Numbered from the stretch's first letter, positions 1-19,303 are shown. The stretch is 64,000 bases of DNA from an uncultured Verrucomicrobiae bacterium (GCA_963714695.1 CAVQPQ010000003.1:692493-756492), one strand, 5' to 3'. Program-made: numbers and translations. The notes: generated from the letters alone by a model not told the origin.

Positions 1-89
1 ATCTTGCGAAGCATCGTGGGGAATTCAACCACGAAAGGATGCATTTGAACACAAAGAATTTTACGTTCCCGAGAATCCGCGCGCCCGCG

Positions 90-680
90 TCACTTGGGCG
101 TGCCAACCGCCGCCTGCGGATTGCCCTTGATGGTCGCCCGCGCGACTTTAATCTGGTCGGCGGTGACCGCGCCGTTTTGGTTGCCCCATGATTCGCGGAT
201 GTAGGTCAGCACGGCAGCCAGATCGGTGTCCGACAACGACGCGCCCATCGCGGCCATGGACAGGCTCCAATCGCGGCCTTTGACCTGAATCAAACCGTTA
301 AGCCCGGTCAGCGGAATGCGCGCGAGCGACGTGATGTCCTTGGCGACCCATTCGGAGCTGGCCAGCGGCGGTGCCTGGCCTGGTTTGCCGAGGCCGTCGG
401 TGCCGTGGCAAAGGCCGCAATATGTTTCATAAACTTTCTTGCCATGAGCCAGCATCGAGGCGGCGCCGGATTTGGGCTGGTAGGAGGCCAGTTCTTCGGC
501 GGAGGTGTAAGGCGCATAGACCTGCTTGTCGAACCAGCCGCTGTGATGGTCGAAATATACCGCGCCCAAAAATAACAGCAGAAGCGTCAGCACAATGATC
601 CAAATGGGCATCGCCGAGCGCGATGCCGTCGGTTCGGCCTCGGGCGTTTGCGATTCGCTGGGTTTTAATGCTTCATTCAT
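90..680 (-). CDS. membrane-anchored monoheme class-I c-type cytochrome
   Basis: 196-aa ORF with one N-terminal hydrophobic helix (PIWIIVLTLLLLFLGAVYF) followed by a single heme motif, CGLCH. It is co-directional with and about 90 nt downstream of the hexaheme gene, and is the last visible gene of the bc-type operon. Confidence 0.8.
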   Translation of the reverse strand: MNEALKPSESQTPEAEPTASRSAMPIWIIVLTLLLLFLGAVYFDHHSGWFDKQVYAPYTSAEELASYQPKSGAASMLAHGKKVYETYCGLCHGTDGLGKPGQAPPLASSEWVAKDITSLARIPLTGLNGLIQVKGRDWSLSMAAMGASLSDTDLAAVLTYIRESWGNQNGAVTADQIKVARATIKGNPQAAVGTPK

Positions 681-769
681 GAGTCAACCGGCTGTGGGAT
701 TATGGCAAAAAGATCGTCGGCGGCGCGAGCCGTTTTTCAACGCTGCCACCGCAACCCGACCACCGGCGG

Positions 770-2158
770 TTAAAAACCCGGATTCTCTTCCTTGGGCTTC
801 AAGCTGAAAAGATAAGCGACCAGGTCGTCCAGCTCGGAATCCTTGATGATGCCGGCCCAGGCAGCCATGAAAAGCGGGGGCGCTGGACGTTTCGGATCGA
901 GTGCCGTGATTTCGCGCTGGCCATTGAGGATGCGCTTTTTCAATTCGCCCTTGGTGTAACCGTCGGCCACGTAGATCAGACCGGGCACCTGCTCGGCGGT
1001 CTTGGCATTGGGATTGGGCACGCCGCCTTTGGCATCGGCGCCGTGACAGCCGGCACAACCGTATTTGCGGAAGACTTCCCGTCCCCGCTCAACCGGGCTC
1101 ATGAGCGATGGCAGGCTTAACGCCACTTTCTGATCGCGCAAGTGCACCAGAAAATCCGTCAGCGCGCGGGCTTCGGTCTCGGTGAAACCAAACCGCGGCA
1201 TGACCGTGCCGGAACTGACGGTCTGCGGATCACGGAAGTGCTGGATCATCCACTCGGGCTGGCGCCGCAAGCCGACGTCGTCCAGCGCCGGGCCGATCTT
1301 GCCGCCCTGGTCGCCGATGGAGTGGCAACCGATGCAGCCTTTCTGCTGGAATAATCGCTGTCCTTCGCTGGCGCTGGGGATGACCCGCATGGAGGCATAG
1401 TAGCCGGGCGCCGACTCGCCGGTCTGGCTGAGCATGAAAAGAACGATCGCTTCGAGGTTCGTCTCGGAAAACTTTTGCGGCGGCATCGCGGAGCCGGGCG
1501 TGACCGATACGGGCGCGAGGAAATGTTTCTTCAGCCATTCCGGCGAACGGCGGGCGCCGACCTTGTCGAGTTCCGGTCCAACCACGCCACCGGCGCCATT
1601 AAGTTTGTGGCAGCCGCGGCAGCCGCTGTCCTCGAACACCTGCTGGCCGCGCGCCAGTTCGGGCGCGGCGGGATTGTCGGCGGCCTCGTGGCATTGGCCG
1701 CAGGAAGCTTGGATGTATTGCAGCGGCAACATCGGCTGATCCCAGTGCGGCACGTTGCCGTGCGCATCGGCGGTGGTCGTGGCGCGGCCCTGTCCGCGAT
1801 GGCAGATGGTGCAGCCAAAACGATCGAACGGGTGCTGTTCGTGCAATGGATGGTAGGCGAGCGGTTGCGGGTAGCCGCCGTAGCTCGGGTCTTCCACCGC
1901 GAGATGGCAGGTGGTGCAGCGGTCCACGCGGTTGAGATCGGGCAGGAGAATTTGACGGACTTGGACCGGGATCTGTTCGGCCAGCGCCAGTTGTTGCGGC
2001 GTCGAGGCGCGGCGGATTTCCTCCGCGATGAATTTGTGCTGATAATTCTTCCACTCGCGGTACTCGTCACGGTAATAACCGATGACGACGAGAACACCGA
2101 CCACGAGACCGAGCACGGTGAACCAGCCATAGAATTTGCGGACAGAAAGGTTGTTCAT
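770..2158 (-). CDS. hexaheme c-type cytochrome, putative subunit of a Rieske/cytochrome b complex
   Basis: 462-aa ORF with an N-terminal TM helix (FYGWFTVLGLVVGVLVVIGYY) and six CxxCH motifs (CTTCH, CTICH, CGQCH, CRGCH, CIGCH, CAGCH). Its start codon lies 1 nt after the cytochrome b stop. Confidence 0.85.
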   Translation of the reverse strand: MNNLSVRKFYGWFTVLGLVVGVLVVIGYYRDEYREWKNYQHKFIAEEIRRASTPQQLALAEQIPVQVRQILLPDLNRVDRCTTCHLAVEDPSYGGYPQPLAYHPLHEQHPFDRFGCTICHRGQGRATTTADAHGNVPHWDQPMLPLQYIQASCGQCHEAADNPAAPELARGQQVFEDSGCRGCHKLNGAGGVVGPELDKVGARRSPEWLKKHFLAPVSVTPGSAMPPQKFSETNLEAIVLFMLSQTGESAPGYYASMRVIPSASEGQRLFQQKGCIGCHSIGDQGGKIGPALDDVGLRRQPEWMIQHFRDPQTVSSGTVMPRFGFTETEARALTDFLVHLRDQKVALSLPSLMSPVERGREVFRKYGCAGCHGADAKGGVPNPNAKTAEQVPGLIYVADGYTKGELKKRILNGQREITALDPKRPAPPLFMAAWAGIIKDSELDDLVAYLFSLKPKEENPGF

Positions 2159-2159
2159 G

Positions 2160-3446
2160 TCAGTGGCCCTCCGTGATTGCCGGCGGTTGCTGCCACGGCA
2201 CCACCCAGCCCCAGTTCGGGCCGCGGAAACAGGTGCCGATAATTGTCAGCACGATGGCCGTCGCCAGGCAGACGGTGAAAATGGTATTGGCGACCACGCG
2301 TTCGCGGGCGAACCAGCGACCGACGCCCTGGCGCTGGCGATCCAGGTAGGGCAACAGCATCAGTGCCGCCACGAGCAAGCCGGGCACCACCACACCGCCC
2401 CAGAACGCCGAGTAGCTGACCAGTTCCTGCAGGCCGAGGAAATACCACGGCGCCTTTGCGGGATTCGGCGGATGAATCTGGTTGGCGAGTTCCTCCAGCG
2501 GCGCGTTCCAGAAAATCGCCAGGAACAGCACCACCGCCGTCACCAGCAGAAACAGCAGCACCTCGCGGAAAACCAGGTGTGGCCAGGAGAACACCTCGTC
2601 TTCCGGGTTCTTGCCCACTTGCGGCGTCGTGCCGCGCGCGAGTTCCATCAGGCCGTAGCTCTTGTTCGTCGGCAGTTGCTTGAGGTCCATCTGCTGAACG
2701 ATGTCGCCCGGTTCGTCGGGACGCGACAACCCGCCATCCTTGCGCACGCGCCAGAGATGGACAGCCACCATCAGCAGCGCCGCCGACGGCAACACGATCA
2801 CATGCAGCGCGTAAAACCGGGTCAGCGACTCCTGCCCGACCACGTTCCCGCCCAACAGCAGATATTTTATCTTGAGACCGATGACCGGGGCGTAGCCGGC
2901 GATGTTGGTGCCGACGGTGATCGCCCAGAACGCGAGCTGGTCCCACGGCAGCAGATAGCCGGTGAAACTCAAACCCAGGGTCAGCAGGAACAGTCCAACG
3001 CCAATCACCCAGTTGAACTCGCGCGGGCGTTTGTAGGCGCCGGTGTAAAACACGCGGCACATGTGCAGCAGCACGAACAGCACCATCAGGTGCGCCGCCC
3101 AGCGGTGCATGTTGCGGATGACCAGTCCGGCGGAGACGACATACTGCAAGTCCTTCATGATGTCGTACGCCTTCTCGGTGCTGGGCACATAATAGAACAT
3201 GAGCAACACGCCGGTGACGATCAGGATCAGGAACAGGTAAAGCGAAATCAAGCCCAGCCCGAGCGAGTAGGAGGCGCGCAGCGAATGGCGGTTGACCTTC
3301 GCCGGCTGCATGTGCAGCAGAAAACTGGAGACCATTGCCTGCGACCGCTCCAGGTTGCTCTCCGGCAGGCCGACGCGAAAGATCGAGCGGCCGACGCGCG
3401 TGCGCGTGAACCACTGCCAGATTCGTTTGGGCAAAGGCGCGTTCAC
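2160..3446 (-). CDS. cytochrome b (b6 plus subunit-IV-like, single polypeptide)
   Basis: Multi-TM ORF with a cytochrome b/b6-like stretch ([37 protein letters not shown]). The track ORF extends to 3530, but a GTG at 3446 overlaps the Rieske stop as GTGA, so 3446 is taken as the likely start. Confidence 0.85.
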
Positions 3447-3919
3447 AAGACAAGGTATTTGTCCGCGGCCACAAGCTGGTTTTTGTCCACCAGCAGCCGG
3501 TTGTCCTTGCTCAACGTTATTTGAAACCATTCCAGCCCGCGCGGGGCCGGGCCGCCTTTGACGGCGCCCTGGTCGTCAAACACGCTGCCGTGGCACGGGC
3601 AATGGTAACCATGGTCGGCGCGGTTGACCGTACAGCCGAGGTGCGTGCAGATCGCCGAGAGACAGCGGAACGTGTTGCCCTGGCGCACGAGAAAGACCCG
3701 CTCCGCTTCCAAAAACGTCACGGAACCGTCGGGATAATCGTCGGGCTTGCCGGCCTTGAAGCGCAAGCTCGGCTCGTACAACACATTCGGCACGAGAAAG
3801 CGCACGGCTCCGGCTGACGCCGCCACCACCGCGAAGGTGCTGGCGAGCCAGCCCAGCGTGAGCTGGAAGAAACTGCGCCGGGAAACTTCGTTTTTGTTTT
3901 CCGAGGTGGTGTGATTCAT
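3443..3919 (-). CDS. Rieske [2Fe-2S] iron-sulfur protein
   Basis: 158-aa ORF with a twin-arginine-like signal ([10 protein letters not shown]), a TM anchor, and both Rieske cluster boxes (CTHLGC and CPCHGS). Confidence 0.9.
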
Positions 3920-3922
3920 ATA

Positions 3923-5845
3923 TCAAGCGGGCACCAATTCCACGCGTTCCATGGTGATCGCGCCGGTGGGACAGCGGGCGGCGCACAGGCCGCAGCGGAT
4001 GCAGCGGGTTTCGTCCTTGATGATCGCGCCCTGTTCGCCTGGTTCGGGCGCGCGCCCGTAACGCACGAGGAAGGCGCCCTGCAACTTTTCATCGCCGCGC
4101 AGGTTGGCGGCATCCACCAGCCGCAGGCAGTATTCCGGACAAACATCGGCGCAGCCGCCACAGAGGATACACTCGTCGCCGTTGAACACCGGACCGACGT
4201 GACATTTCAAGCAGCGATCCGCCTGCAGCCGCGCGGCGGGTTCCGGATAATCTTTTTCCACCTCGGCAATCCCGATGCGCCGGTCCAGTGGCAGCGTCGG
4301 CGGCGGACGGCGGACGAACTTTTCGTAATCGGGCTTCATCCGGTACTGGAGCGTGTTGTAAATCGTCACGCGCGCCTGGCGCGGCTCGGCGGGCACGCGG
4401 CCCGTGAGGAATTTCGCAATGGAATTCGCCGCTTTCTTGCCCTCCGCAACCGCGGTGATGATGATTCGCGGCCCAAACGCCACGTCACCGCCCGCGAACA
4501 CGTCGGGACGCGACGTGGCCATCGTCACTGGATCGGTTTGCAACGCTCCGCGCGGCGTCACCTTCAAATTGTCCTCGGGATGAATCCAGGCCAGGTCCGC
4601 CGACTGGCCGATAGCGAGAACGACGGTGTCGCAATCCACAATCTCTTCGCTGCCTTCAATGAACTGCGGATTGAACCGGCGGTTCTCGTCGAAGACCCGG
4701 CCAGCCTTGATCAGTTCGATGCCCGAGACTTTCCCATCGCTGCCGACGATGCGTTTTGGGCCGAAGCGCGTGTGGAGCCGGATGCCTTCCTTTTCCGCCT
4801 CCTCGATTTCCTCGCGCGCAGCGGGGATTTCGTCGAGGCTCTCGAGGCAATACATGTGGACTTCAGGCACACCCTTGCGGATGGCTTCCCGCGCCACGTC
4901 CAAAGCGAGGCGCACCTCGTCGGGCGCCTCCGGTTCGCGCGCGGTCAATTGTTCCAGCGCAGACGCGGCCTGATGCAGTGCCTCACGCAATTCCGCCTCG
5001 CTCATCCCCGCAAATTTTTCCGTCTGGCGGACGACCGAGCGCGCCACGTCGAAAGCGACGTTGCCGCCGCCGATGACGACCACCTTGCGGCCGAGCGACA
5101 CGCGATAGCCCAGGTTGACGTTCAGGAGGAAATCAATCGCGCGCAGCACGCCATCCAATTGCACGCCCTCGATGGACAGCTCGCGGCTTTTGTGCGCGCC
5201 GATGCCGAGGAACACGGCTTCAAAGCCTTGCTGCTTGAGATCGGCAAAAGCGAAGTCCTTGCCCAGCCGGGTGTTCAGGCGAATTTCCACACCGAGCGAT
5301 TCGATCGCGGCGATTTCCGCCCGGATGATTTCACGCGGCAGCCGGTATTCGGGCACGCCGAGCACCAGCATGCCGCCGGCCAGGTTGTGCGCTTCGAAAA
5401 CCGTCGGAGCGAATCCCATCAATGCCAGCTCGTGCGCGCAGGACAGGCCCGCCGGACCAGCCCCAACGATGGCCACCTTGCGTCCGCCGCCGATGCGTTC
5501 GCGTCGCGGATCGCGCAATTCGGGATAGACGCGGCCCAAGTCGAACTGGTTCGACTCGACGCCGAATTTTTCACAGACAAACCGTTTCAACGCGCGGATC
5601 GAGATGGAGGCATCGAGTGCGCCGCGCCGACATTTCGCCTCGCACGGCGCGGCGCAAACACGGCCGCAGATGGAGGCGAAAGGATTGGGCGTGCGGGCAA
5701 TGACGTAGGCGTCCTCGTAACGCCCTTCGGCGATGGCCTGCACATAGCCGCCGGAATCCGTCCGAACCGGACAACCTTCACGGCAAAGGACCTGCCGGGT
5801 GAAATAACTCACATCCGGCAGTTCGACTGGATAGGTCGTGGGCAT
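3923..5845 (-). CDS. GltD-like (glutamate synthase small-subunit family) NAD(P)H-dependent flavoprotein with C-terminal 2x[4Fe-4S] ferredoxin motifs
   Basis: 640-aa ORF. The N-terminal Cys-rich region (ICGRVCAAPCEAKC) is typical of GltD-type proteins. It has a dinucleotide fold (KVAIVGAGPAGLSCAHEL, plus a second VVVIGGGNVAFD). The C-terminus carries CxxCxxCxxxCP-type motifs (CILCGGCADVCP, CIRCGLCAARCP). The stop lies 3 nt upstream of the Rieske start. Confidence 0.8.
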   Translation of the reverse strand: MPTTYPVELPDVSYFTRQVLCREGCPVRTDSGGYVQAIAEGRYEDAYVIARTPNPFASICGRVCAAPCEAKCRRGALDASISIRALKRFVCEKFGVESNQFDLGRVYPELRDPRRERIGGGRKVAIVGAGPAGLSCAHELALMGFAPTVFEAHNLAGGMLVLGVPEYRLPREIIRAEIAAIESLGVEIRLNTRLGKDFAFADLKQQGFEAVFLGIGAHKSRELSIEGVQLDGVLRAIDFLLNVNLGYRVSLGRKVVVIGGGNVAFDVARSVVRQTEKFAGMSEAELREALHQAASALEQLTAREPEAPDEVRLALDVAREAIRKGVPEVHMYCLESLDEIPAAREEIEEAEKEGIRLHTRFGPKRIVGSDGKVSGIELIKAGRVFDENRRFNPQFIEGSEEIVDCDTVVLAIGQSADLAWIHPEDNLKVTPRGALQTDPVTMATSRPDVFAGGDVAFGPRIIITAVAEGKKAANSIAKFLTGRVPAEPRQARVTIYNTLQYRMKPDYEKFVRRPPPTLPLDRRIGIAEVEKDYPEPAARLQADRCLKCHVGPVFNGDECILCGGCADVCPEYCLRLVDAANLRGDEKLQGAFLVRYGRAPEPGEQGAIIKDETRCIRCGLCAARCPTGAITMERVELVPA

Positions 5846-5863
5846 TCCAGTTCGGTCAGCGGA

Positions 5864-6346
5864 CTACTTCGAATCGTACTTGTCGTGGACTTCCTTGATC
5901 TTGGCCTCGGCAGCCACCTTCTCGTCGGCGCTCAACTTGGCGAGCTTGTCGTCGAGCATCGCTTTCTTGCGGATGCTGGCGTCATAGACGAGGAAATCGT
6001 AAATTTTTTTGCCGTCGCCGCTACTGATACCCGAACCGGGCTTGTGCATCATCCGTTTGATGTAGCGCGACCACTCGTCGGGCGTGGCGTAGTCGGAGTT
6101 GATGGGCCGGCTCAGTTTGTGGCATTGTGTGCATTTGGTGCTGAACACTTCGTAGTCGTCCTTGATACCATCCGGGTATTTGGAGACATCAATGGAGGCC
6201 GGGCCTTTTTCGAAACGTTCGACGCGCGCCTTGGTATCAGCGTCGAGTTGGTCTTCCGCGCGCGCCAAGCCCGCTGTCAAGGCGAGCGCCGCCAGGCCAA
6301 GGAGCAGGGTGGTGAATTTTGTGGTCATAATGGGAGTTCCTTTCAT
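5864..6346 (-). CDS. small secreted monoheme cytochrome c-like protein
   Basis: 160-aa ORF with a signal peptide (TLLLGLAALALTAGLARA), a single CTQCH, and a following EW..YIKRMM motif. An alternative ATG at 6328 has a better AAGGA spacer. The ORF abuts the porin stop (TAG-ATG). Confidence 0.65.
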   Translation of the reverse strand: MKGTPIMTTKFTTLLLGLAALALTAGLARAEDQLDADTKARVERFEKGPASIDVSKYPDGIKDDYEVFSTKCTQCHKLSRPINSDYATPDEWSRYIKRMMHKPGSGISSGDGKKIYDFLVYDASIRKKAMLDDKLAKLSADEKVAAEAKIKEVHDKYDSK

Positions 6347-7744
6347 CTAAAATCCATACGAGAGCTGGATGACAAATTCATTGGACGGCAGCGCATCGGG
6401 ACCCCGGCTGTGCAGCCATTCATAGTCACCTTCGAGCAGCAAGGTGTTCGTAAGGTAATAAACGATCCCGGCCGTGACGCGGTCGGTGGTTGTTCCCTGA
6501 CCGTCGTTCACTCCGTCGTAGCGGCTGACCAACTCAACATCGCTGACGACGGGCATATCCAAATTCAGTCCCGCCAGCTTGTAAGCTCCCTGTATCCACC
6601 AGCCTCGCGCCCGGATGGTGCCGGCATCGGTGGTCTGTTGCCAGGTGTTGATATACTCACCTTTTACCTCGGTGTAAGGGCCAATGTGCACGGCGGCATC
6701 AACGACCGCAGCCGACCAAAGCTCCTGGCCGGCGCTGTCCCAAGGACCAGCCTGGCCGGAAACTCCCAGTTCGATGTCGTAATGCGGCTTCCACGGATAA
6801 AACCAACCGATCCGGCCGCCACCGCTGGGATTGCCGTTGAGGTTGCCGGAACTGCCGTCGGCATTGACGCCCACATTTCCGTTGAGACTTATATTGGGTA
6901 TCGTATTGCCGTTGACATCAATGGTGGTGGCGCGTCCGGTGCCGTCAACCGACGACGGCCCGTTGGCGGCATAAACCGCATAAGTCACCATCTGTCCGGA
7001 ATCGCCCACAGGCAGGGAGCCGCGGATCTGTGCACCCGCGCCCGCGCCGGGCAGGAAATCCACCGCCAGCGGATCATCCGGTATTTTGTTGAGCCAGCCG
7101 GCGCCACGTTCGCTGTAAGTGCCCAGCGGCAATAACATGTAACCGGCCACCAGGGTCACGTAATCGTTGAAGAGATAATCCAATTGCGCGAAACTCAAGC
7201 TCACCGAGGTTCCGGCGTCGCCATTGCCCGTCTGATTATTCTGCAAGCTTACCGCCGAGTTCTGCAGGGTCACATCGAAGCCCGCCTCGAACAGTATGTT
7301 GTCGCTTGCCCGGAACAGGAAGATCGGCGCGAAATCGGCCATCACAAAGCCGCTGTGCGAACCCTGTGATCGGCCGAATTGAACTTCGGCGTCGCCCGCC
7401 ATCGTGAAGTTGTGCAACGCGCTCATGACGCCGCTGGGGATGGGATTAACCGGTTGAATTTTGGCCGCTTCGTCGGCTTTCTGCTCCGCGTTGGTGGCCA
7501 GCATTTGCGTTTCACCCAGCCGCTGCTCCAACTGTTGGATGGTCTGCTGGTCCTGAAGGTGCGTTTGCTGGTCCTGTTCGTGCAATTTTTCCAACTGGCC
7601 AATCCGCTGGTCCTGGTTGGTGACCATGCTTCGCAACGCATTGAAATCCTCATCACTGATTATCGCCGCCGTGCGCGGGGTCAAGGCGACACCCAGCGCA
7701 CAAGCTGCTGCCGCTGCGCCTAAAATAAAGGAAGAAATTTTCAT
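6347..7744 (-). CDS. outer-membrane beta-barrel porin with N-terminal coiled coil (phosphate-selective porin O/P-like)
   Basis: The track ORF runs to 7918, but an internal ATG at 7744 gives a signal peptide (MKISSFILGAAAAACALGVAL). A Gln/Glu-rich coiled coil follows (IGQLEKLHEQDQQTHLQDQQTIQQLEQRL). The remainder has alternating beta-strand-like sequence and ends in an aromatic residue (LSYGF). Confidence 0.7.
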   Translation of the reverse strand: MKISSFILGAAAAACALGVALTPRTAAIISDEDFNALRSMVTNQDQRIGQLEKLHEQDQQTHLQDQQTIQQLEQRLGETQMLATNAEQKADEAAKIQPVNPIPSGVMSALHNFTMAGDAEVQFGRSQGSHSGFVMADFAPIFLFRASDNILFEAGFDVTLQNSAVSLQNNQTGNGDAGTSVSLSFAQLDYLFNDYVTLVAGYMLLPLGTYSERGAGWLNKIPDDPLAVDFLPGAGAGAQIRGSLPVGDSGQMVTYAVYAANGPSSVDGTGRATTIDVNGNTIPNISLNGNVGVNADGSSGNLNGNPSGGGRIGWFYPWKPHYDIELGVSGQAGPWDSAGQELWSAAVVDAAVHIGPYTEVKGEYINTWQQTTDAGTIRARGWWIQGAYKLAGLNLDMPVVSDVELVSRYDGVNDGQGTTTDRVTAGIVYYLTNTLLLEGDYEWLHSRGPDALPSNEFVIQLSYGF

Positions 7745-7767
7745 GGGTAAAATGTTTAAGGGCGGAT

Positions 7768-8082
7768 TTAATTCCCGGCATCTTCCTGGAGGAATTTGAG
7801 GATTAGCTTCGCCTGCGCCGCGGGGAGATTGGCCCGCACGCGCATGTGCGTGACGATGGTCTTCCACTGGGCCGAGGTGAACTCGGTGGCATACCGCTCC
7901 GGATGGCAGCGGTTGCAATTGATGGTGTACAACTCGGCACCGGTGAGTTTCTTCGCCGCTGGCTTCGAGTCGGTTTTCTTTTCCGGTTCGGCGTGCGCCA
8001 GAACCACGCTGAGGCAGACGGCCACCAGCGCCAGCGCGCCGGCCAGAACCACCGGCCGTTTATTTTTCAATATTGAGCGCAT
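7768..8082 (-). CDS. small secreted monoheme cytochrome c-like protein (paralogous in motif to 5864-6346)
   Basis: An internal ATG at 8082 is preceded by a strong SD (GAAGGAGAACAATT-ATG). The protein has a signal peptide (VVLAGALALVAVCLSVVLAHA), a single CNRCH, and a QW..IVTHM motif. It is the first gene of the operon. Confidence 0.65.
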   Translation of the reverse strand: MRSILKNKRPVVLAGALALVAVCLSVVLAHAEPEKKTDSKPAAKKLTGAELYTINCNRCHPERYATEFTSAQWKTIVTHMRVRANLPAAQAKLILKFLQEDAGN

Positions 8083-8281
8083 AATTGTTCTCCTTCTTTT
8101 ATTGTTTGCCACAATAGCCAACCTGTCCCAGAAAATGCAATCCACATTATTTATTTTTGTTATAACAACGGATTGCCTGCCAAAACAATGCCAAAATGAA
8201 TGATTTTCGCTTTGCGATTCAACGTCCTGAAAGCGCGTCTCCGCGTAAATCATCAATCAAAAATCGTAAATTGCAGAAGGT

Positions 8282-8352
8282 GTCCCATCTTCTCGCGCTT
8301 GGCCTTCAGATACCGTTCATTGTGCGGATTGGGTTTCACACGGATCGGCAAC
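8282..8352 (-). pseudogene. displaced duplicate of the ribBA 3' coding end (att-like direct repeat, left copy)
   Basis: 63 of 71 nt are identical to 9734-9804. The fragment encodes LPIRVKPNPHNERYLKAKREKMGHLL, versus LPIRVKPNPHNEKYLKAKREKMGHLL-stop in ribBA. No upstream ribBA-like sequence is present, and the stop codon is lost. Confidence 0.7.
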
Positions 8353-8364
8353 GGCTTGCTGTGT

Positions 8365-9072
8365 TCATCCAGCATGCCGCAGTTTTTCCAATTCTTTGCG
8401 CAAGGGCAGCCAGTAAAGTTTGTCCCGTTCGCGCTCATCGGTTTCTTCGGCCAGCAGTGCCGCCTCCAGTTTGGCGGCCTGGCCCAAAACGGCGGACGCC
8501 AGCAACGGGCGGGACGGCACAAGCTGGCGGCATAGTCGCGGGTGGATCTTGGCCAGTTCCACCAACAGTTGCGGGGTGCGGAGTTCCCGCAGCCAGAATT
8601 TCACCTGCGCGGGATTCGGCCGGTCACTTTGCTGAAAGTAGTGCGCTTCGACCAGTCGCCGGATCATCGGCCAGTCCCTGTCACGCTGGGTTTTCTTCGC
8701 CTGCACCAGATCGGGCAACGAAAGCAAATCGCAAGTTGTTCCGTCCGGCAGTTCGATGACAGTGCGCCGCCGCCAGAGCTTGGCGAACGAATCCAACCCG
8801 CGCATTTTGGCCATGACATCCACGCGCATTCGCAATGCCTCCGGGTGCTGGCAGCGAAAATGGATGGCATGGCCTTGGCGGAGGTATTTCAGTTCAAACG
8901 GGGGAACCGCGATGGGTCCGGCCCGCAAGTCGGCCAGCACCCGCCGGAGTCGCGCCAGATTGGCGGCGACGGCGAGGATGGCGAAGTCCGTGTCGCGGCT
9001 AAACTCGGCCGCGCCGTAGAACACGCACGCCTGTCCGCCCATGAGCAGGGCGCGGACGCGGTGCGCGCGCAT
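8365..9072 (-). CDS. hypothetical protein, nucleotidyltransferase-like (MNT/DUF6036-type guess)
   Basis: The ORF is taken from the internal ATG at 9072 (MRAHRVRALLMGGQACVFYGAAEFSRDTDFAI). The GG..A...YG..R.T.D.D pattern resembles minimal nucleotidyltransferase folds. This assignment rests on motif memory only. Confidence 0.5.
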   Translation of the reverse strand: MRAHRVRALLMGGQACVFYGAAEFSRDTDFAILAVAANLARLRRVLADLRAGPIAVPPFELKYLRQGHAIHFRCQHPEALRMRVDVMAKMRGLDSFAKLWRRRTVIELPDGTTCDLLSLPDLVQAKKTQRDRDWPMIRRLVEAHYFQQSDRPNPAQVKFWLRELRTPQLLVELAKIHPRLCRQLVPSRPLLASAVLGQAAKLEAALLAEETDERERDKLYWLPLRKELEKLRHAG

Positions 9073-9229
9073 CGAAGAAAGGACTTTGCGTATCGGGTTC
9101 GGAATCAAGTGAGCCTCCCAGCGCGAGATAGGTCTGCCAGAGTTTTTCGCTTTCCAGCCAGCGTTGCACGGGCGTGAGCCGGTACCACTCGGCCCATTCG
9201 CCACCAACCAATTGTTCCGGCTGAATCAT
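8999..9229 (-). CDS. small hypothetical protein upstream of and overlapping the nucleotidyltransferase-like ORF
   Basis: 76-aa ORF (MIQPEQLVGGEWAEWYRLTPVQRWLESEKLWQTYLALGGSLDSEPDTQSPF...). It overlaps the next ORF by about 74 nt in another frame. The arrangement is antitoxin-like. Confidence 0.4.
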   Translation of the reverse strand: MIQPEQLVGGEWAEWYRLTPVQRWLESEKLWQTYLALGGSLDSEPDTQSPFFDARAPRPRPAHGRTGVRVLRRGRV

Positions 9230-9421
9230 GGGAAAATAATAACAGAGCTGCGCGGAAAATCAAAGCGCGACGCGACGAGGGTGAACGTCCTGTAGCTGGC
9301 GGAAACTTTTTGCTTCTGAACTTTCTTAAGCATCGCAGAAATTTAACCAAGAATGAACACGAATGGACACGAATAAATTTACTGGCAGCAAATCAATACA
9401 AGTCGGGCAATGGCTGATATT

Positions 9422-9718
9422 CTAATCTGAATCAAATTTGAGTTGATCCATGGGCTTTTGATTATGGGCGTTCTGAATTTTTCTAAATTCTTCATAAGAA
9501 ATCTTTCCACCCGCCAATACAAACTTCCGATACCTTCTTAGATTTACTGATTCTTGAGCTGCTTCAAGTTTTTCCGGCGAGTGTCCACCTGTTGAAATCC
9601 GCATTTCAAATGGATCGTTAAAACAAGATGGTTGAGTAAATCGAATTAAAAGTTTCTCAAGAATATCAATTCGCTCTGAATTGACGTATTTGAAAATTTG
9701 TTTCGGCAATTGCGCCAT
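9422..9718 (-). pseudogene. DUF2971-like N-terminal fragment
   Basis: 98-aa ORF in an AT-rich patch, carrying the FNDPFE-type motif (FTQPSCFNDPFEM) that marks DUF2971 proteins. Those are normally about 250-300 aa, so this copy looks truncated. Confidence 0.45.
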
Positions 9719-9722
9719 AGCC

Positions 9723-10922
9723 TCACAACAAATGCCCCATTTTTTCGCGCTTGGCCTTCAAATACTTTTCGTTGTGCGGATTGGGTTTCACGCGGATCGG
9801 CAACTGCTCGACGATTTTCAGCCCGTAGCCCTCCAAGCCGACGATTTTTTTGGGATTGTTCGTCAGCAGCCGGATGGTTTTCAACCCCAGGTCCACGAGA
9901 ATTTGCGCGCCGATGCCATATTCGCGCAGATCCATTTCGTAGCCGAGTTTTTCGTTCGCCTCAACGGTGTCGTAGCCCTGCTCCTGCAATTTGTAGGCCT
10001 TGATTTTCGGTGCCAGGCCGATGCCGCGGCCTTCCTGTCGCATATAAACAATCACGCCGCGCCCGGCTGCGGCCACCTGCCGCATGGCCTGATGCAGTTG
10101 CGACCCGCAATCGCAGCGGCGCGAGCCGAACACGTCGCCGGTCAGACATTCGCTGTGGACGCGCACGAGCACTTTGTCCCGTCCGGTCACGTTGCCGTGC
10201 ACCAGCGCGAGGTGATGCTGGTCGTCCAGTTTCGAACGATACAAATGCAAATTGAAATCGCCGTAGTCGGTCGGCAGTTTGACGGTTTCGACGAGTTCGA
10301 CCAGTTTCTCCCGCGTGCGCCGGTGTTCGATTAGGTCGGCAATGGTGCAGATTTTCAGGTGATGTTTTTTTGCGAACTTCAACAACTGTGGCAGGCGCGC
10401 CATGGTGCCGTCGTCGTTCATGATTTCGCAGAGGATGCCGACGGGCTGGCATTCGGCGAGCGTGGCCAGGTCCACCGCCGCCTCGGTGTGGCCGGCGCGC
10501 TGGAGCACGCCGCCCGGTCGCGCGCGGAGCGGAAACACGTGGCCCGGCTGCACGAGGTCGTCCGGTACCGACTTGGGTTCGGCCATGATTTTAATGGTGC
10601 GCGCCCGGTCCGCCGCGCTGATGCCGGTGGTGACGCCGCGCGCGGCGTCCACGCTCACATGAAAATCCGTGCGAAAGCTCTCGCGGTTTTGCTGCACCAT
10701 GCGGTCAATGCCCAGTTGGTGCAGCCGTTCGGCGGCCGACGGCATGCAAATGAGTCCGCGCCCGAATTTGGCCATGAAATTGACTGCCGTGGGCGTCACG
10801 GATTGCGCCGCCATGATCAAATCGCCCTCGTTTTCGCGGTCGGCGTCGTCCACCACGATGACCATTTTGCCGCGGCGAATGTCCGCGACGACCGATTCAA
10901 TGCTGTCGAAAGTTTTTTTCAT
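9723..10922 (-). CDS. ribBA: bifunctional 3,4-dihydroxy-2-butanone-4-phosphate synthase / GTP cyclohydrolase II
   Basis: From the internal ATG at 10922 (MKKTFDSIESVVADIRRGKMVIVVDDADRENEGDL) there is a DHBP synthase signature. The C-terminal half has the GTP cyclohydrolase II Cys motif (VRVHSECLTGDVFGSRRCDCGSQL). Confidence 0.95.
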   Translation of the reverse strand: MKKTFDSIESVVADIRRGKMVIVVDDADRENEGDLIMAAQSVTPTAVNFMAKFGRGLICMPSAAERLHQLGIDRMVQQNRESFRTDFHVSVDAARGVTTGISAADRARTIKIMAEPKSVPDDLVQPGHVFPLRARPGGVLQRAGHTEAAVDLATLAECQPVGILCEIMNDDGTMARLPQLLKFAKKHHLKICTIADLIEHRRTREKLVELVETVKLPTDYGDFNLHLYRSKLDDQHHLALVHGNVTGRDKVLVRVHSECLTGDVFGSRRCDCGSQLHQAMRQVAAAGRGVIVYMRQEGRGIGLAPKIKAYKLQEQGYDTVEANEKLGYEMDLREYGIGAQILVDLGLKTIRLLTNNPKKIVGLEGYGLKIVEQLPIRVKPNPHNEKYLKAKREKMGHLL

Positions 10923-11049
10923 CCGGTGAAGACAGCATAGCCATCCGCCGTTCAAATGCCAGTTGCAAAGCAAGGGCCGAGTCCGGTTGCGCTGCCGACG
11001 CCGCCATTCGACGGCTTCCCGGGAGCGCCGACTCGTTGCCTGACGGCGA

Positions 11050-12997: not shown

Positions 12998-14401
12998 TCA
13001 CGGCGTTCCCAATGGAATACCATTGTGAAATTGGAAAACATATTTTCCCAACACACTACTATTAAAGTTTGTGTATATCAGGCCGGTCACGAGATTGGTA
13101 TCCAGCAACGCATGCGGAACAGCAGACCCGTTTAGCTCAAATGTTAAGCCGCTTGCGCTGGCATAGCCCGCTCGTGCCGGGCTGTGGTAGTCATCTATAT
13201 CGCCCCACACATATTGGCCGTCACTACCTCCGCTGACATCGCCTGCTTCCCATTGGATTTGGGCATAGTTAAACTCGAGATCAAAATCTCCGTTCGTCCG
13301 ATCAGCCCGGTCTATCAACACCAACTGAAATGAATTTAGCTTGTCATATTTAGCCTGGTAATATCCGACATTAATCCAATTAACTCCGAAAGCAGCCCGG
13401 CCATCCACTGTGCCGGAGCCATAAGTCACCACACCCGAATTCGTGCTTCTTGTATCCACATCCGCCCAAAATGGAGCGATAATGTCCATGCCAAGATCGA
13501 CGAGTGGCTCGGGGGTATATGCTGTTAGATAGTAATTAAAAGTCACATTGCCATTATTATTCACAAAAAGATTCATGTAAGAAGTTCCAAAGAAATTAAT
13601 GGCAAACGGTAATGTTGCCGATGCGCTGGGAGCATCGTCCTCGTGACCAAGAGAATTTGTGTTAAACCCAGGGCGGATGGCAGTCGGGTTTCCCAGCATA
13701 AAGAAGCCTTGCGTAGGCGGCAGGTTTGTCACCACAAGATTCGTTTGACTCGAGGCGCACTGTAGCAACCAAGTCCAATTGTAAGGAATCGCCAGATTCG
13801 TCTTGAAATACAAACCGTAAACGCCATTGGTCACATTCCATGGTGTGTGAATCAACAGATGGGCTGTCTGGGCCGTTCCAGTGTTGGTCGTTCCTGCAAT
13901 TTGAAGCCAAAGGTCGTTCGTTGTGAATACTTGGGGTTGAAAACTGGAACTGAAACCACAACCGCTGTTGGTGCCACCGCCACCACCAAAACCTGGCGGA
14001 CTCAGGGCATTCATCACCATCATGGTTCCTGCAGACGGCTCCGGGTAGTCCAGATCATCGAGCAGATAAAAGCCCGAACCTGAATCTGAACTTAAATTCC
14101 AAATTGGAATCTGCCAGATGTCCGCTGGGAGCGGCGGCCAATTGGGATGGGCCAGCGAATAAAAATTCCCAGCCATGCCTCCGCGTGGCAAATCCGCCGC
14201 CGCTATCGTCGGCGTGGCCGCCAACACATCCAACAATTCTCCCAATTGGGCGTCGGAAAATGTTCCCAGCGTCCTGATGTTTGTGGCTGACAATGAAACT
14301 GTTCCCGCTGGAATCGCCGGTACGGTCACCTGGCCACGCAAACTGAAGGTTATTGCAACAACAAACGCAATCCCAGCCCAAACCATCCGCGTCTTTTTCA
14401 T
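12998..14401 (-). CDS. secreted protein with NIDO (nidogen-like) domain
   Basis: NIDO-like motifs are present: FFGTSYMNLFVNNNGNVTF, IIAPFWADVDTR and NSFQLVLIDRADRTNGDFDLEFNY. The likely start is the ATG at 14401 (MKKTRMVWAGIAFVVAITFSL). The gene is low in GC. Confidence 0.65.
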   Translation of the reverse strand: MKKTRMVWAGIAFVVAITFSLRGQVTVPAIPAGTVSLSATNIRTLGTFSDAQLGELLDVLAATPTIAAADLPRGGMAGNFYSLAHPNWPPLPADIWQIPIWNLSSDSGSGFYLLDDLDYPEPSAGTMMVMNALSPPGFGGGGGTNSGCGFSSSFQPQVFTTNDLWLQIAGTTNTGTAQTAHLLIHTPWNVTNGVYGLYFKTNLAIPYNWTWLLQCASSQTNLVVTNLPPTQGFFMLGNPTAIRPGFNTNSLGHEDDAPSASATLPFAINFFGTSYMNLFVNNNGNVTFNYYLTAYTPEPLVDLGMDIIAPFWADVDTRSTNSGVVTYGSGTVDGRAAFGVNWINVGYYQAKYDKLNSFQLVLIDRADRTNGDFDLEFNYAQIQWEAGDVSGGSDGQYVWGDIDDYHSPARAGYASASGLTFELNGSAVPHALLDTNLVTGLIYTNFNSSVLGKYVFQFHNGIPLGTP

Positions 14402-14661
14402 AAGTTTTTTAAAAGTCTTACTCTGAGTTATTTTAGCATTATAAATCTTATCCATCAGTGATGCAAGTAATAATACTTTGTTGGGTGTTTTAAGTTTCAC
14501 GTCGCCTTGCTTCCCAAAAGATTGTGGTATGCCCGAAGCAAAATCTTAACACTCTTGGGGACGAGGAGAAAAATTATCTCCATTGAGGCCCAGTTGCGAG
14601 TGCGAAGGCGGTGAAAATTCCTATTCGCGAATTTTTTCGCGGCATTCCCCTGTTTTAAATG

Positions 14662-17042: not shown

Positions 17043-17399
17043 TTATTTCTCCGGCAAAAAAGCAAAAGCCACCGCCGCTAGGATGCACACAAACGCGGCG
17101 AGATGGTTCCACCGGATTTTTTCGCCGAGATACAAAATCGCAAAGCCGCAGAAGACGGTGAGTGTAATGACTTCCTGGATGATTTTGAGCTGGGTGGCGG
17201 AATAAACGGCGTTGCCCCAGCGATTGGCCGGCACTTGCAGGACGTATTCAAAAAGCGCGATGCCCCAGCTCACCAGGATGACGAGCAGCAGCGGCTTGCT
17301 TTTGAATTTCAAGTGGCCGTACCACGCCACCGTCATGAAAACGTTCGAGCAGGTCAGCAGCACAATGGGCAGCCAGCGGGATTGAGTCAGGTCGTTCAT
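17043..17399 (-). CDS. DUF486-family (DMT superfamily) small membrane protein
   Basis: 118-aa ORF with four predicted helices and the characteristic AWYGHLKF and LQVPANR..........QLKIIQEVITL motifs. Confidence 0.8.
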   Translation of the reverse strand: MNDLTQSRWLPIVLLTCSNVFMTVAWYGHLKFKSKPLLLVILVSWGIALFEYVLQVPANRWGNAVYSATQLKIIQEVITLTVFCGFAILYLGEKIRWNHLAAFVCILAAVAFAFLPEK

Positions 17400-17659
17400 A
17401 ATTTGGGAAAAGGAATTTTGTGTTTGGCGCGGATTTCATCGAGCGCGACACGGAATGGTTTGCCGGTGCCAGCTTTCATTTCATCCAAACCGCGCTGGAT
17501 GCCGCGCAGGGCATCCACCAAATCGTCCGAGCGCTGGCCGCGCGCTTTCGGCACGCCAACATATTTGCTGATGGGATGCTTATTTGTTTTATGCAAAGCC
17601 GGCTTCACGCGGTTAAAAATGAACGGAAGTATAAAGATTACGCAAGGGCTGCATTTCAT
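17396..17659 (-). CDS. small hypothetical protein with ParD/RelB-antitoxin-like C-terminal motif
   Basis: 87-aa ORF. Its C-terminal part (DDLVDALRGIQRGLDEMKAGTGKPFRVALDEIRAKHKI) resembles antitoxin C-termini. Its stop overlaps the DUF486 start (ATGA). The true start is uncertain. Confidence 0.3.
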   Translation of the reverse strand: MKCSPCVIFILPFIFNRVKPALHKTNKHPISKYVGVPKARGQRSDDLVDALRGIQRGLDEMKAGTGKPFRVALDEIRAKHKIPFPKL

Positions 17660-17689
17660 TTTGATGGTTTGATTCGCTGTTTCTGAATT

Positions 17690-17866
17690 TCACTTTGGCC
17701 AGCCGCCCGGCGGTTTGCGCTTCTGCATCGCCACTCTCACCGCCGCTTTCCAGTTGCCGTCTATTTTCAATCGCTCCGGTTCCGGGCCGCGATCTGTGCG
17801 CCGGGCTTCCAGCGATGATTTTGGCTGGCTGGTATTTACGATTGCCTCTGGCTGTTTCTTTTTCAT
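17690..17866 (-). CDS. small basic hypothetical protein (58 aa, below the ORF-track cutoff)
   Basis: Hand translation gives MKKKQPEAIVNTSQPKSSLEARRTDRGPEPERLKIDGNWKAAVRVAMQKRKPPGGWPK-stop, from an ATG at 17866. The SD is weak. Confidence 0.3.
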   Translation of the reverse strand: MKKKQPEAIVNTSQPKSSLEARRTDRGPEPERLKIDGNWKAAVRVAMQKRKPPGGWPK

Positions 17867-17901
17867 AATCTCATTAAACCGTCATCCTACATGTAACCAT
17901 T

Positions 17902-18150
17902 ATGCTCACAATTCAGTTCAACATTGAAACCAATCTGAAAGATAAGCGAACGATTTCGTGCGTTGCTGGTGGAGCAGTCGCACGACATCTCACCGGCCTG
18001 CTCAAAGATATTAAAGACCCTGTCACAGGCGAGTCTCCGCAAGTCTTGATGTCTCCACATGAAGAAGGTATCAAGCTTTCTTTGCGGGGTTCAGCTTCCA
18101 CTTTAGCGGAAGCCGAGGTTCAGATTCGGGCAATGCTCGAATCTGAATAA
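17902..18150 (+). CDS. hypothetical protein
   Basis: 82-aa ORF in low-GC DNA. No motif was recognised. Confidence 0.2.
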   Translation: MLTIQFNIETNLKDKRTISCVAGGAVARHLTGLLKDIKDPVTGESPQVLMSPHEEGIKLSLRGSASTLAEAEVQIRAMLESE

Positions 18151-18488
18151 GGATTTCAAGCGTTTTGCGGCGCGTGATTTTCTTTCGTTTTTTCATAATT
18201 GAGAACCCTTTTTATCTCGTTTGCGTCGAAAAACCCTCCACCCAAGAGAAGGGTGCATGGGATACATGGTTCGTTTTTCTACAAACGCTAAAAGATAACC
18301 CAAAAATAACCGTAACATCAAAATCATTGAGCGAAAGTCTTTGGTTGTTTCCCGCCAAAAGTGGCGTGCTGCGGCTAAGTCGCTTTCTGGAGTTGTGCGA
18401 TAAGTGTTACGTAAAACCAAAGGTGTTTTTTCTTCAGTCGGAACCTGAAATTTGTGAGTGAACTGTTTCATAATTCACCCCGCATAAA

Positions 18489-18884
18489 ATGGACGCATAT
18501 AGCAACCCGGCACCGATAGCAACCGTTGAGCAGTTCAAGACCGCTTTGCTGGTGGTGCGAGATCGGATTGGCATAACTCCAAAAGAATTGGCGCTGCTTA
18601 GAACACACTGCCGCGCACCCAAGCACACAATTTCCACCGTCAAGCTTGCGAAGGAACTTGATTATCCAAATCACAGCACCGTCAACATGCACTATGGCGC
18701 GCTGGCGCATCATATCGCCGATGCGCTCCATCACGTTCCGCCACCAATCCCCGGCGGTGAGGCGCACTGGTGGCGCACACTGGCTTATGGAAACGATGAA
18801 GTGCCGCAGACAGATGACGGCCATTACGAATGGATTATGAGGCCGGAACTTGTTCGGGCACTTCAAGAGATGAAATGGGCGTGA
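18489..18884 (+). CDS. hypothetical protein resembling the N-terminal domain of COG3183-type HNH endonucleases, without the HNH domain
   Basis: 131-aa ORF with the pattern LRTHCRAPKHTISTVKLAKELDY....VNMHYGALAHHIADAL....WW..LA....HYEWIMRPELVRALQEMKW. From memory, this pattern precedes an HNH nuclease module in other bacteria. Here the ORF ends before any HNH motif. Confidence 0.5.
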   Translation: MDAYSNPAPIATVEQFKTALLVVRDRIGITPKELALLRTHCRAPKHTISTVKLAKELDYPNHSTVNMHYGALAHHIADALHHVPPPIPGGEAHWWRTLAYGNDEVPQTDDGHYEWIMRPELVRALQEMKWA

Positions 18885-18970
18885 TTTCATTTGTTTTTGT
18901 CGTTTGACAACTCTTCATCTTTGGCGTTCTGATTGCCCGTCACGCGGAAACGTATAACCGAAAAATAAAC

Positions 18971-19129: not shown

Positions 19130-19303
19130 ATTCGATCCACGCGCTCATTTTTCACCCCCACGCGCTAACCTTTGATTTCCGGCTAATTCCGGCCTGTTCC
19201 AACCTATTCCACCCCTTGCGTAATCTTTACACTTCCGAAAATGAATTCACCCGCAAGCAGAGTCAAATGGGAACGCACCAATTCGAGGCGCGTTTGCAGA
19301 ACA

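Follow-up and report, generated by a model that had tools for sequence, protein, structure and literature searches.

What does a flavoprotein with a predicted NAD(P) site do beside a respiratory Rieske/cytochrome b complex? The question is raised by a 64,000-nucleotide (nt) stretch of DNA from an uncultured Verrucomicrobiae bacterium (GCA_963714695.1, CAVQPQ010000003.1:692493-756492), hereafter the window, in which five minus-strand genes at positions 90 to 5845 encode a GltD-like flavoprotein, a Rieske protein, cytochrome b, a hexaheme cytochrome and a monoheme cytochrome c. An original prediction held that this is the architecture of the Rieske/cytochrome b complexes of anaerobic ammonium-oxidizing (anammox) bacteria, placed in a non-anammox organism. 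Judging from sequence, we find that the cluster very probably belongs to a family of NAD(P)-flavoprotein-linked Rieske/cytochrome b complexes of the APWY type, named for a motif at the quinol-oxidizing (Qo) site. The further reading, that the complex would split the electrons of quinol between cytochrome c and NAD(P)+ as proposed for anammox bacteria, is one to which we assign a probability of about 0.45.

Gene order and distribution of the cluster

The five genes are part of a packed run of eight. They are listed first below with their lengths in amino acids (aa), followed by the three genes that lie upstream of them.

3923-5845, minus strand: flavoprotein, 640 aa, predicted to be cytoplasmic, NfnB/GltD-like and to bind flavin adenine dinucleotide (FAD) and NAD(P), from Pfam, NCBIfam and Protein Data Bank (PDB) sequence matches
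3443-3919, minus strand: Rieske 2Fe-2S subunit, 158 aa, with a twin-arginine signal/anchor, from Pfam and PDB matches
2160-3446, minus strand: cytochrome b, fused b6 and subunit IV, 428 aa, from Pfam, NCBIfam and the family alignment
770-2158, minus strand: membrane-anchored hexaheme cytochrome c, 462 aa, from Pfam and six CxxCH motifs
90-680, minus strand: class-I cytochrome c with a single heme and a membrane anchor, 196 aa, having one transmembrane helix and the heme motif CGLCH, from Pfam
5864-6346, minus strand: small periplasmic c-type cytochrome with a single heme (CTQCH), 160 aa, shortened to 154 aa if translation starts at the ATG at 6328
6347-7744, minus strand: outer-membrane beta-barrel of the porin type, 465 aa; a signal peptide is present, the N-terminal coiled coil is rich in Gln, and YGF stands at the C terminus
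7768-8082, minus strand: small monoheme c-type cytochrome, 104 aa, with CNRCH and a signal/anchor helix; the first gene of the packed run

All five open reading frames (ORFs) of the original prediction were recovered on the minus strand, with gaps of 1-89 nt or an overlap: 3 nt between flavoprotein and Rieske genes, a 4-nt overlap between Rieske and cytochrome b, 1 nt between cytochrome b and hexaheme, and 89 nt between hexaheme and monoheme. As had been read, cytochrome b uses a GTG start, which overlaps the Rieske stop codon in the sequence GTGA, and the same overlap is called in one relative and in same-strain public contigs. The five genes exist as described, but the cluster is larger than five, as the three upstream genes (5864-8082) continue the run with gaps of 18, 0 and 23 nt and carry it 2.2 kb past the upstream limit first drawn. 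A scan of positions 1-9800 for promoters and terminators returned sites no commoner than in shuffled sequence, leaving gene spacing to define the operon boundaries.

The distribution of the cluster was then read from related genomes. Representatives of clusters at 50% identity gave a diverse flavoprotein alignment, with which one genome per GTDB species was scanned, and the best 80 loci were taken; synteny was read by tblastn with the window proteins, ORFs in the loci were called crudely, and taxon labels are the titles of metagenome-assembled genome (MAG) records. Represented among these best 80 loci are Verrucomicrobia, Binatota, many Acidobacteriota, Bacteroidota, Ignavibacteria and Chloroflexota, as well as Zixibacteria, Planctomycetia, Eisenbacteria, Krumholzibacteriia, Calditrichaceae and one 'Deltaproteobacteria' MAG (about a dozen phyla overall), and the names of homolog clusters add Nitrospinota and Desulfomonilaceae. 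The order flavoprotein, Rieske, cytochrome b, multiheme cytochrome c on one strand was found in 66 of the 81 non-anammox loci, with a short contig or a partial set visible at most of the other 15. Median spacing of the aligned parts is 89 nt from flavoprotein to Rieske and 60 nt from Rieske to cytochrome b. A four-gene order that recurs in this many loci of many phyla is far beyond chance, and it indicates that the flavoprotein belongs to the module and that the module is not specific to anammox bacteria. Synteny in relatives had been set beforehand as a refuting test, and the flavoprotein keeps its place across about a dozen phyla. The architecture had also been described as known mainly from anammox bacteria, which holds for the experimental literature but not for genomes, and its breadth had already been noted in comparative work (PMC5600118, PMC4122944).

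The anammox clusters are the closest experimentally studied point of comparison. The two best PDB matches of the window Rieske protein, 9rk4 (2e-23) and 9rk3 (1.5e-18), are both Kuenenia Rieske proteins, with the next match at 1e-13; by their box II residues we assigned them to Kuste4569 and Kustd1480 of Hauser et al. 2025, respectively. Using the 9rk4 sequence, we fetched the loci of Kuenenia sp. (L082) and Scalindua rubra (L083), so that the locus-level comparison concerns the Kuste4569 type, while Kustd1480-85 was compared through its Rieske protein (9rk3). The gene order in both fetched loci is Rieske, flavoprotein, b6, subunit IV, hexaheme, and an octaheme protein resembling hydroxylamine oxidoreductase (HAO-like). 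Identity between window and anammox proteins is 34-40% for the full-length flavoprotein, 39% for the Rieske protein, 44-47% for the cytochrome b6 part, 40-46% for the subunit IV part and 25-27% for the N-terminal heme module of the cytochrome c. With Kuste4569-4574 and Kustd1480-1485 (Kartal 2013, de Almeida 2016, Hauser 2025) the window cluster has in common a Rieske protein, a GltD-like iron-sulfur (FeS) flavoprotein, cytochrome b/subunit IV and a membrane-anchored multiheme c, along with 16 FeS Cys, the APWY Qo motif, an N-side His (window His45, Kuenenia His43) and a Ser-type Rieske protein. The anammox-type architecture claimed for this organism is therefore borne out, as the four core proteins are homologous to those of the Kuste4569-73-type locus and have the family marks in common.

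The two also differ. The flavoprotein gene stands first in the window, whereas the Rieske gene is first in anammox; cytochrome b is a single 428-aa protein here and is split into b6 and subunit IV there; and GLGL replaces the CxGG motif of heme cN. The window c subunit has three class-I domains, the flavoprotein has an insertion of ~45 residues, the HAO-like octaheme is absent, a porin and two small cytochromes are added, and the host is a saccharolytic Verrucomicrobium. In a neighbor-joining tree without bootstrap, the window groups with Verrucomicrobia as sister to Binatota, and the anammox proteins branch outside a clade of all other loci. The loci could be sorted by partner genes into four types:

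Type A, ~50 loci, mostly Acidobacteriota: upstream are a beta-barrel-like protein of 430-470 aa, whose one CxxCH is N-terminal, and a cupredoxin-like protein of 199 aa; c subunit with eight hemes
Type B, 11 loci from Acidobacteriota, Bacteroidota, Ignavibacteriales, Calditrichaceae and Thermoanaerobaculia: long cytochrome b and pentaheme core, then clade II NosZ
Type C, the window's own: two small cytochromes and a porin upstream; fused cytochrome b; six-heme c subunit
Type D, anammox: cluster opening with the Rieske gene; b6 and subunit IV split; partner an HAO-like octaheme protein

The NosZ of type B is of the Sec type (clade II; TIGR04246, 880 bits) and is followed by genes that resemble nosB, nosD and nosF, as judged by position and by eye. 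It lies ~5.2 kb downstream of the flavoprotein start (L012, L014, L016, L021, L024, L025, L040, L050, L051, L056, L057), and the open-access literature searched gives no account of such a flavoprotein in clade II nos clusters. In type A (for example L006 657-1946, L007 8018-9930 and L005 1667-2263) the barrel carries the motif PxFxRKYxxxCxxCH...LNxFG and matches no Pfam or NCBIfam family, and the cupredoxin-like protein has H...CxxHxxM plus a CarboxypepD_reg domain. The hhalign probability between the type A barrel and the window porin is 66%. The type A pair recalls the Cyc2/Cyc572 fused cytochrome-porins with rusticyanin, which are iron-oxidation systems (PMC10654088) and to which it may be related.

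Parts of this family had been flagged before. A passage of Kao and Hunte (2014) describes an 'APWY clade' of cytochromes b from several phyla with Ser-Phe/Ser-Tyr Rieske partners of mid+ to high potential (PMC4122944). Dibrova et al. (2013, 2017), in their treatment of 'subfamily G', place a large NAD(P)-binding FeS oxidoreductase next to cytochrome b in 'many other cases' beyond planctomycetes, and define a clade G' of long cytochromes b inside large conserved operons of unknown function (PMC5600118). The window family has the APWY motif, the Ser-Phe/Ser-Tyr Rieske protein, the multi-phylum patchiness and the NAD(P)-binding FeS oxidoreductase in common with these groups, and, going by its description, clade G' would fit as well, since the window family has a long cytochrome b without CxGG. 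The searched text of these papers does not list Verrucomicrobia or Binatota for the clade and does not describe the porin/cytochrome, NosZ or cupredoxin variants of the module.

Subunits and cofactor ligands

The flavoprotein matches Pyr_redox_2 (1.2e-28), Fer4_20 of the GltD/dihydropyrimidine dehydrogenase type (1.6e-17) and Fer4_7 (2.3e-9), in agreement with its earlier description as a GltD-like 640-aa protein. Its two dinucleotide folds read VAIVGAGPAG and VVVIGGGNVAFD, its C-terminal ferredoxin domain, 2x[4Fe-4S], has two CxxCxxCxxxCP motifs (C559-C569 and C615-C625), and there is no signal peptide. Sixteen Cys, enough for four FeS clusters, are invariant in 84 flavoproteins including those of Kuenenia and Scalindua, as are both dinucleotide-binding folds with their Gly/Asp/Arg signature residues across the family alignment. 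The top PDB sequence matches are NfnA (9n5u), 9bov, 8oh5_C, the GltD-like large subunit of Nfn (4ylf_B, 5jca_L) and GltD, and the nearest solved relatives are NADPH-reactive GltD-like proteins (Nfn large subunit, GltD and dihydropyrimidine dehydrogenase). With NfnAB, GltD and the N-terminal module of dihydropyrimidine dehydrogenase it has the Fer4_20 domain and the FAD and NAD(P) Rossmann folds in common, whereas the extra C-terminal 2x[4Fe-4S] domain, the lack of an NfnA or GltB partner and the respiratory membrane-subunit neighbors set it apart. All NCBIfam matches are glutamate-synthase-small-subunit-like and under cut-off (best 442.8 vs 516), and at the related loci examined no gene for GltB, NfnA, a formate dehydrogenase catalytic subunit or a ferredoxin is conserved near the cluster. 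In the window clade, ~45 residues (278-325) are inserted in the second dinucleotide domain; the insertion is absent from Kuenenia and GltD-like outgroups. Public annotations of homologs vary between 'formate dehydrogenase beta subunit' and 'glutamate synthase beta-like'. We rejected the JGI name 'formate dehydrogenase (NADP+) beta subunit' as annotation by similarity, because no catalytic subunit is nearby. An AlphaFold2 model of the flavoprotein, made from a shallow alignment of 87-96% identical homologs, had a mean predicted local distance difference test score (pLDDT) of 37 and was unusable.

The Rieske protein (Pfam 4.4e-13) carries a twin-arginine signal and the boxes CTHLGC and CPCHGS, as first read; the signal has the sequence SRRSFF. 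CPCHGS is kept in nearly all family members in which box II was read. The window box II, CPCHGSVF, is of the Ser-Phe type and so matches Kustd1480. Hauser et al. (2025) report two Kuenenia Rieske proteins at +303 and +335 mV, with Kustd1480 being the +335 mV protein (PMC12954380), and in the classification given by Kao and Hunte a Ser-Phe Rieske protein falls in the 'Mid+' class (PMC4122944).

Cytochrome b spans b6-like and subunit IV-like halves, with Pfam matches covering the N- and C-terminal parts (Cytochrome_B 4.6e-45 and Cytochrom_B_C 1.7e-6). The heme-ligand residues His 114, 128, 215 and 230 are invariant in the family alignment. A 13-residue stretch of the Qo site is identical to that of the anammox proteins and common throughout the family, with APWY present in 72 of 80 sequences. 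A further His, His45, is invariant in 77 of 77 sequences and aligns with His43 of Kuenenia cytochrome b, while the canonical b6-type cytochrome b at locus L018 lacks the equivalent. His45 sits 18 residues before the CxGG position within an Arg/Lys-rich N-terminus, which would place it on the cytoplasmic side. In the AlphaFold3 models of Hauser et al., His43 of Kuste4571 is proposed to ligate a novel heme b where the two monomers meet, and this heme would connect the n-side b hemes with the FeS chain of the flavoprotein (PMC12954380). At residues 63-66, where the CxGG motif of heme cN would be, the window protein has GLGL. Among the aligned cytochromes b only the anammox proteins and canonical L018 have CxGG, and all aligned non-anammox members of the family lack the heme-cN Cys; we therefore treat its absence as the mark of a sub-branch and not as grounds for exclusion from the family. 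Without this Cys, a Qn site of the b6f type is unlikely. At L007 12599-14092 the tblastn match of a Cytophagia cytochrome b crosses one in-frame stop codon, which a b6/subunit IV split within one frame, a recoded codon or faulty assembly might explain.

All six CxxCH motifs of the hexaheme cytochrome were located as predicted (residues 81, 116, 153, 180, 275 and 368). The protein is built from a conserved N-terminal anchor and triheme module followed by three class-I cytochrome c domains, and it has the heme positions and the N-terminal module in common with anammox and other phyla. The 196-aa monoheme cytochrome (90-680), with CGLCH, is membrane-anchored as originally noted, but its membership in the cluster is not conserved, as the gene was seen next to the cluster in the same strain and in none of the relatives beyond it. 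It is therefore probably not a core subunit; this gene product is probably an electron acceptor of the complex or else independent of it.

On the other side of the cluster, the 160-aa cytochrome is kept directly upstream of the flavoprotein in L001-L004, L028 and L052. The 104-aa cytochrome, with weak NCBIfam matches to the TorC C-terminal domain (2.8e-7) and SorB (2e-5), is called as a gene in same-strain public contigs and kept upstream of the cluster in L002, L003, L028 and L004; hhalign relates the two cytochromes at 85% probability. Between them, the 465-aa protein has a weak Pfam match to Porin_O_P and no family assignment in Pfam or NCBIfam. Its AlphaFold2 model, with a pLDDT of ~70-90 in the barrel region, matches the 16-stranded porins OmpU, OmpC, OprP and OprO by Foldseek (E 3e-11 to 1e-9, probability 1.0), so that the model identifies the protein as an outer-membrane porin carrying a coiled coil at its N terminus. 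There is no CxxCH in its sequence and no match to ExtI or any other NCBIfam family, and its homologs, from Verrucomicrobiota/Limisphaerales, are all named 'hypothetical protein'. The set of two cytochromes and porin adjoins the core only in the Verrucomicrobia loci L002, L003 and L028, and occurs in another order in a Binatota MAG (L004).

These features separate the window complex from two better-known systems. With bc1 and b6f it has in common a twin-arginine Rieske protein, four cytochrome b His ligands and a subunit IV/C-terminal domain with a W-Y Qo motif. Cytochromes c1 and f are both absent from it, its Qo motif reads APWY where theirs is PEWY/PDWY, the heme cN motif is missing, and it adds an invariant His and an NAD(P) flavoprotein encoded alongside; NCBIfam b6 and PetC scores of the window proteins are far under their cut-offs. 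The motif APWY, together with the multiheme subunit and the flavoprotein, led us to reject a canonical complex III. In the Geobacter extHIJKLMNOPQS cluster, a selenite/tellurite operon, ExtO is a Rieske protein, ExtP and ExtQ are cytochromes b, ExtS is a cytochrome c, and ExtI is porin-like and weakly similar to phosphate porins (PMC5877670). That module, too, combines a Rieske/cytochrome b core with c-type cytochromes and an outer-membrane porin, but it has no flavoprotein, cytochromes of 10 and 12 hemes, a rhodanese and a split cytochrome b. ExtP (277.1 against a cut-off of 290) and ExtQ (84.2 against 150) are the top NCBIfam matches of the window cytochrome b, and ExtS (77.1 against 100) is matched by the hexaheme, all of them below cut-off. 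By sequence, the Ext module is a close relative of the window module, not the same family.

Electron flow through the complex

Carrying over the scheme of Kartal et al. and Hauser et al. by analogy, we hypothesize that the complex bifurcates the electrons of quinol to cytochrome c and NAD(P)+. We infer that the flavoprotein, with its FAD, NAD(P) site and four FeS clusters, would be wired to the cytoplasmic face of cytochrome b, with the hexaheme on the periplasmic face. Menaquinol would be oxidized at the APWY Qo site, and one electron would run downhill through the Ser-Phe Rieske protein, the hexaheme and the small periplasmic cytochromes c to a terminal acceptor, most likely an oxidase. The other would pass to the low-potential b hemes and, bypassing quinone reduction at a Qi site, continue through a heme b held by His45 of both monomers and the four FeS clusters to FAD, where two such low-potential electrons would reduce NAD(P)+.

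The host phyla use menaquinone, which together with a higher-potential Ser-Phe Rieske protein would provide ample driving force for a heme bP of very low potential. Both partners that follow the module, NosZ at 11 loci and the HAO-like protein in anammox, are electron sinks, suggesting that quinol oxidation is the likely forward direction and arguing against reverse operation as a general mode. For anammox, Hauser et al. argue that the measured Rieske potentials permit NAD(P)+ reduction (PMC12954380). Several points weigh against bifurcation. The saccharolytic host is rich in catabolic NAD(P)H, so the physiological need is unclear, and to our knowledge no biochemical characterization has been reported for members outside anammox. 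Kao and Hunte state, where they discuss the clade, that no APWY complex had yet been characterized (PMC4122944). In anammox itself NAD(P)H production is still a proposal, and the extra heme b stems from the AlphaFold3 model of Hauser et al. (PMC12954380). Where Kuste4570 has Arg511, near the propionates of that proposed heme, the window protein and 65 of 84 family members have Gly. Moreover, the fused, bc1-like cytochrome b could keep a Qi site, and sequence does not fix the direction of flow through the flavoprotein.

In a serious rival, although one we consider rather unlikely, the flavoprotein is the electron input. NAD(P)H would deliver electrons through FAD, the FeS clusters and the n-side hemes to quinone at a Qi-type site, and the quinol formed would enter an ordinary Q cycle at Qo. 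The complex would then act as an NAD(P)H:cytochrome c oxidoreductase, in effect complex III with a non-pumping dehydrogenase docked onto it. Such a path is downhill throughout, needs no unusual potentials and suits an NAD(P)H-rich heterotroph. GltD-like flavoproteins, including the Nfn large subunit, normally accept electrons from NADPH; a fused cytochrome b without heme cN resembles the bc1-type proteins, which have a Qi site; and Dibrova et al., in discussing the four-helix cytochrome b, view it as a membrane anchor of protruding dehydrogenases (PMC5600118). However, NAD(P)H input leaves the near-universal Ser-type, higher-potential Rieske protein in menaquinone phyla unexplained (PMC4122944), together with the family-specific APWY motif and the extra invariant His. 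It would also be redundant in one 87%-identical relative, where alternative-complex-III-like modules stand beside the cluster and a second plain quinol:cytochrome c route would add little.

The porin and small cytochromes of the window operon allow a different direction of flow, which we think improbable: a high-potential periplasmic or extracellular donor, taken up through these proteins, would feed the cytochromes and the Rieske protein, and its electrons, joined by a low-potential electron from NAD(P)H, would reduce menaquinone at Qo. Kao and Hunte speculate in one passage on APWY complexes running backward (PMC4122944), and the ~50 loci with single-heme beta-barrel-like and cupredoxin-like proteins upstream are reminiscent of Cyc2/Cyc572 plus rusticyanin (PMC10654088). 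Yet NosZ (11 loci) and the HAO-like protein, a proposed nitrite reducer in anammox, are sinks and not donors, the window porin has no heme motif, kinship of the type A barrel with Cyc2/Cyc572 is conjectural given its lack of a Pfam or NCBIfam match and its hhalign value to the window porin of 66%, and spending NAD(P)H to oxidize a poor donor brings no obvious benefit. About as unlikely, in our view, is that the docked flavoprotein reacts with ferredoxin, flavodoxin, a thiol or another cytoplasmic substrate, or carries out Nfn-like flavin-based bifurcation, instead of using NAD(P)(H). Among its closest solved relatives are NfnA (9n5u), a GltD-like Nfn subunit in which the bifurcating FAD resides, and the FeS-flavoprotein modules found in large enzymes of the formate-dehydrogenase type; public annotations vary, and the window clade has the ~45-residue insertion in the second dinucleotide domain. 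On the other hand, both dinucleotide folds and their signature residues are invariant family-wide, and none of the partner genes sought (GltB, NfnA, formate dehydrogenase catalytic subunit, ferredoxin) is conserved nearby. It seems least credible of all, and very improbable, that the flavoprotein is an independent soluble enzyme sharing an operon with an ordinary Rieske/cytochrome b complex. Association of the subunits is known here from genes, which leaves room for such an arrangement, but the gene order is kept in about a dozen phyla although the surroundings are rearranged, flavoprotein and cytochrome b signatures are conserved together, and the anammox homologs are reported to co-migrate as one complex (PMC12954380; PMC5600118).

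Quinol bifurcation thus being the reading we prefer, we tentatively extend it to the family, as a possible but doubtful generalization. The module may be a portable quinol-bifurcating NAD(P)+ reductase of menaquinone bacteria that is plugged into whichever high-potential sink the host has. In the window the sink would be oxidase-linked cytochromes, and in anammox the HAO-like nitrite reductase; some Acidobacteriota, Bacteroidota, Ignavibacteria and Calditrichota would use clade II N2O reductase, and many Acidobacteriota a cupredoxin with a heme-bearing outer-membrane barrel. On this generalization, the porin and small cytochromes would tie the window module to an outer-membrane or periplasmic substrate.

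Genomic surroundings, host and implications

The eight-gene run is flanked by ribBA and ribH in same-strain public contigs. In the window ribBA lies at 9723-10973, and ribH (L084 15802-16365) falls just past the left edge, 45 nt after the monoheme gene. As ribBA and ribH are usual neighbors, the flavoprotein complex appears to have been inserted into a riboflavin operon. Neither gene occurs within 10 kb of the cluster in the relatives L001-L004 and L028. A 76-nt direct repeat, 88% identical, at 8281-8356 and 9733-9808 copies the 3' end of ribBA. Between the copies is a 1.4-kb insert of lower GC content (8357-9722) with ORFs of 280 aa (8365-9207) and 98 aa (9422-9718) that have no Pfam match, and this looks like a small element integrated at the ribBA end with ribBA restored. 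In the 87%-identical relative (P0088 contig, genes 889-7655 and 17052-20345; L001 8723-12016), the alternative-complex-III-like sets lie on both sides of the cluster and comprise multiheme c, Fer4_11 and NrfD-type membrane proteins, one of them fused to a cyclic-nucleotide-binding (cNMP-binding) domain; a PocR/AraC regulator stands upstream of the cluster on this contig.

Other genes of the window encode GH2, GH3 and GH31 glycosidases, a BspA-type leucine-rich-repeat protein, LptD and two-component sensors, and close homologs are labeled Verrucomicrobiota or Limisphaerales. By its gene content, the host, a soil Verrucomicrobium, is glycan-degrading and saccharolytic. In line with the original prediction that hydrazine and hydroxylamine oxidoreductase genes are absent, neither these nor other nitrogen-cycle genes were found in the 64-kb window, and the HAO-like octaheme gene present in L082 and L083 was found neither in the window nor in L084-L086. 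A GH2 glycosidase is split over overlapping minus-strand ORFs at 52176-52886 and 52777-55041, with the N-terminal domains in the 754-aa ORF and DUF4982 plus a C5 domain in the 236-aa ORF, which suggests a frameshift, a pseudogene or a sequencing error. At 21276-25892, predicted envelope lipoprotein genes (PEGA-domain, CsgG-like, a 473-aa protein without family, LpoB-like) may form a curli-like secretion or assembly unit. Adjoining LptD, a minus-strand gene at 12998-14500 encodes a 500-aa protein with a NIDO (nidogen-like) domain (2.1e-24), a domain better known in animal extracellular matrix proteins.

Whether Qo-site bifurcation can be used to make NAD(P)H instead of pumping protons has been an open question since the anammox genomes, and it is hard to address in slow-growing anammox enrichments. 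In this respect the window itself is confirmatory, the family having already been flagged by comparative genomics. The family-wide pattern is of greater interest because it offers tractable non-anammox systems for a long-standing proposal. The same module occurs in lineages that are very abundant in soil and freshwater (Verrucomicrobiota, Acidobacteriota, Bacteroidota, Ignavibacteria, Chloroflexota and others), and the window and the 80 related loci provide more tractable organisms as well as natural 'experiments' with differing terminal partners. If bifurcation is correct, these bacteria would possess a widespread way of passing electrons from the quinone pool on to NAD(P)H without relying on proton-motive force, and this would bear on the redox balance of soil bacteria living on quinone-level donors or respiring N2O.

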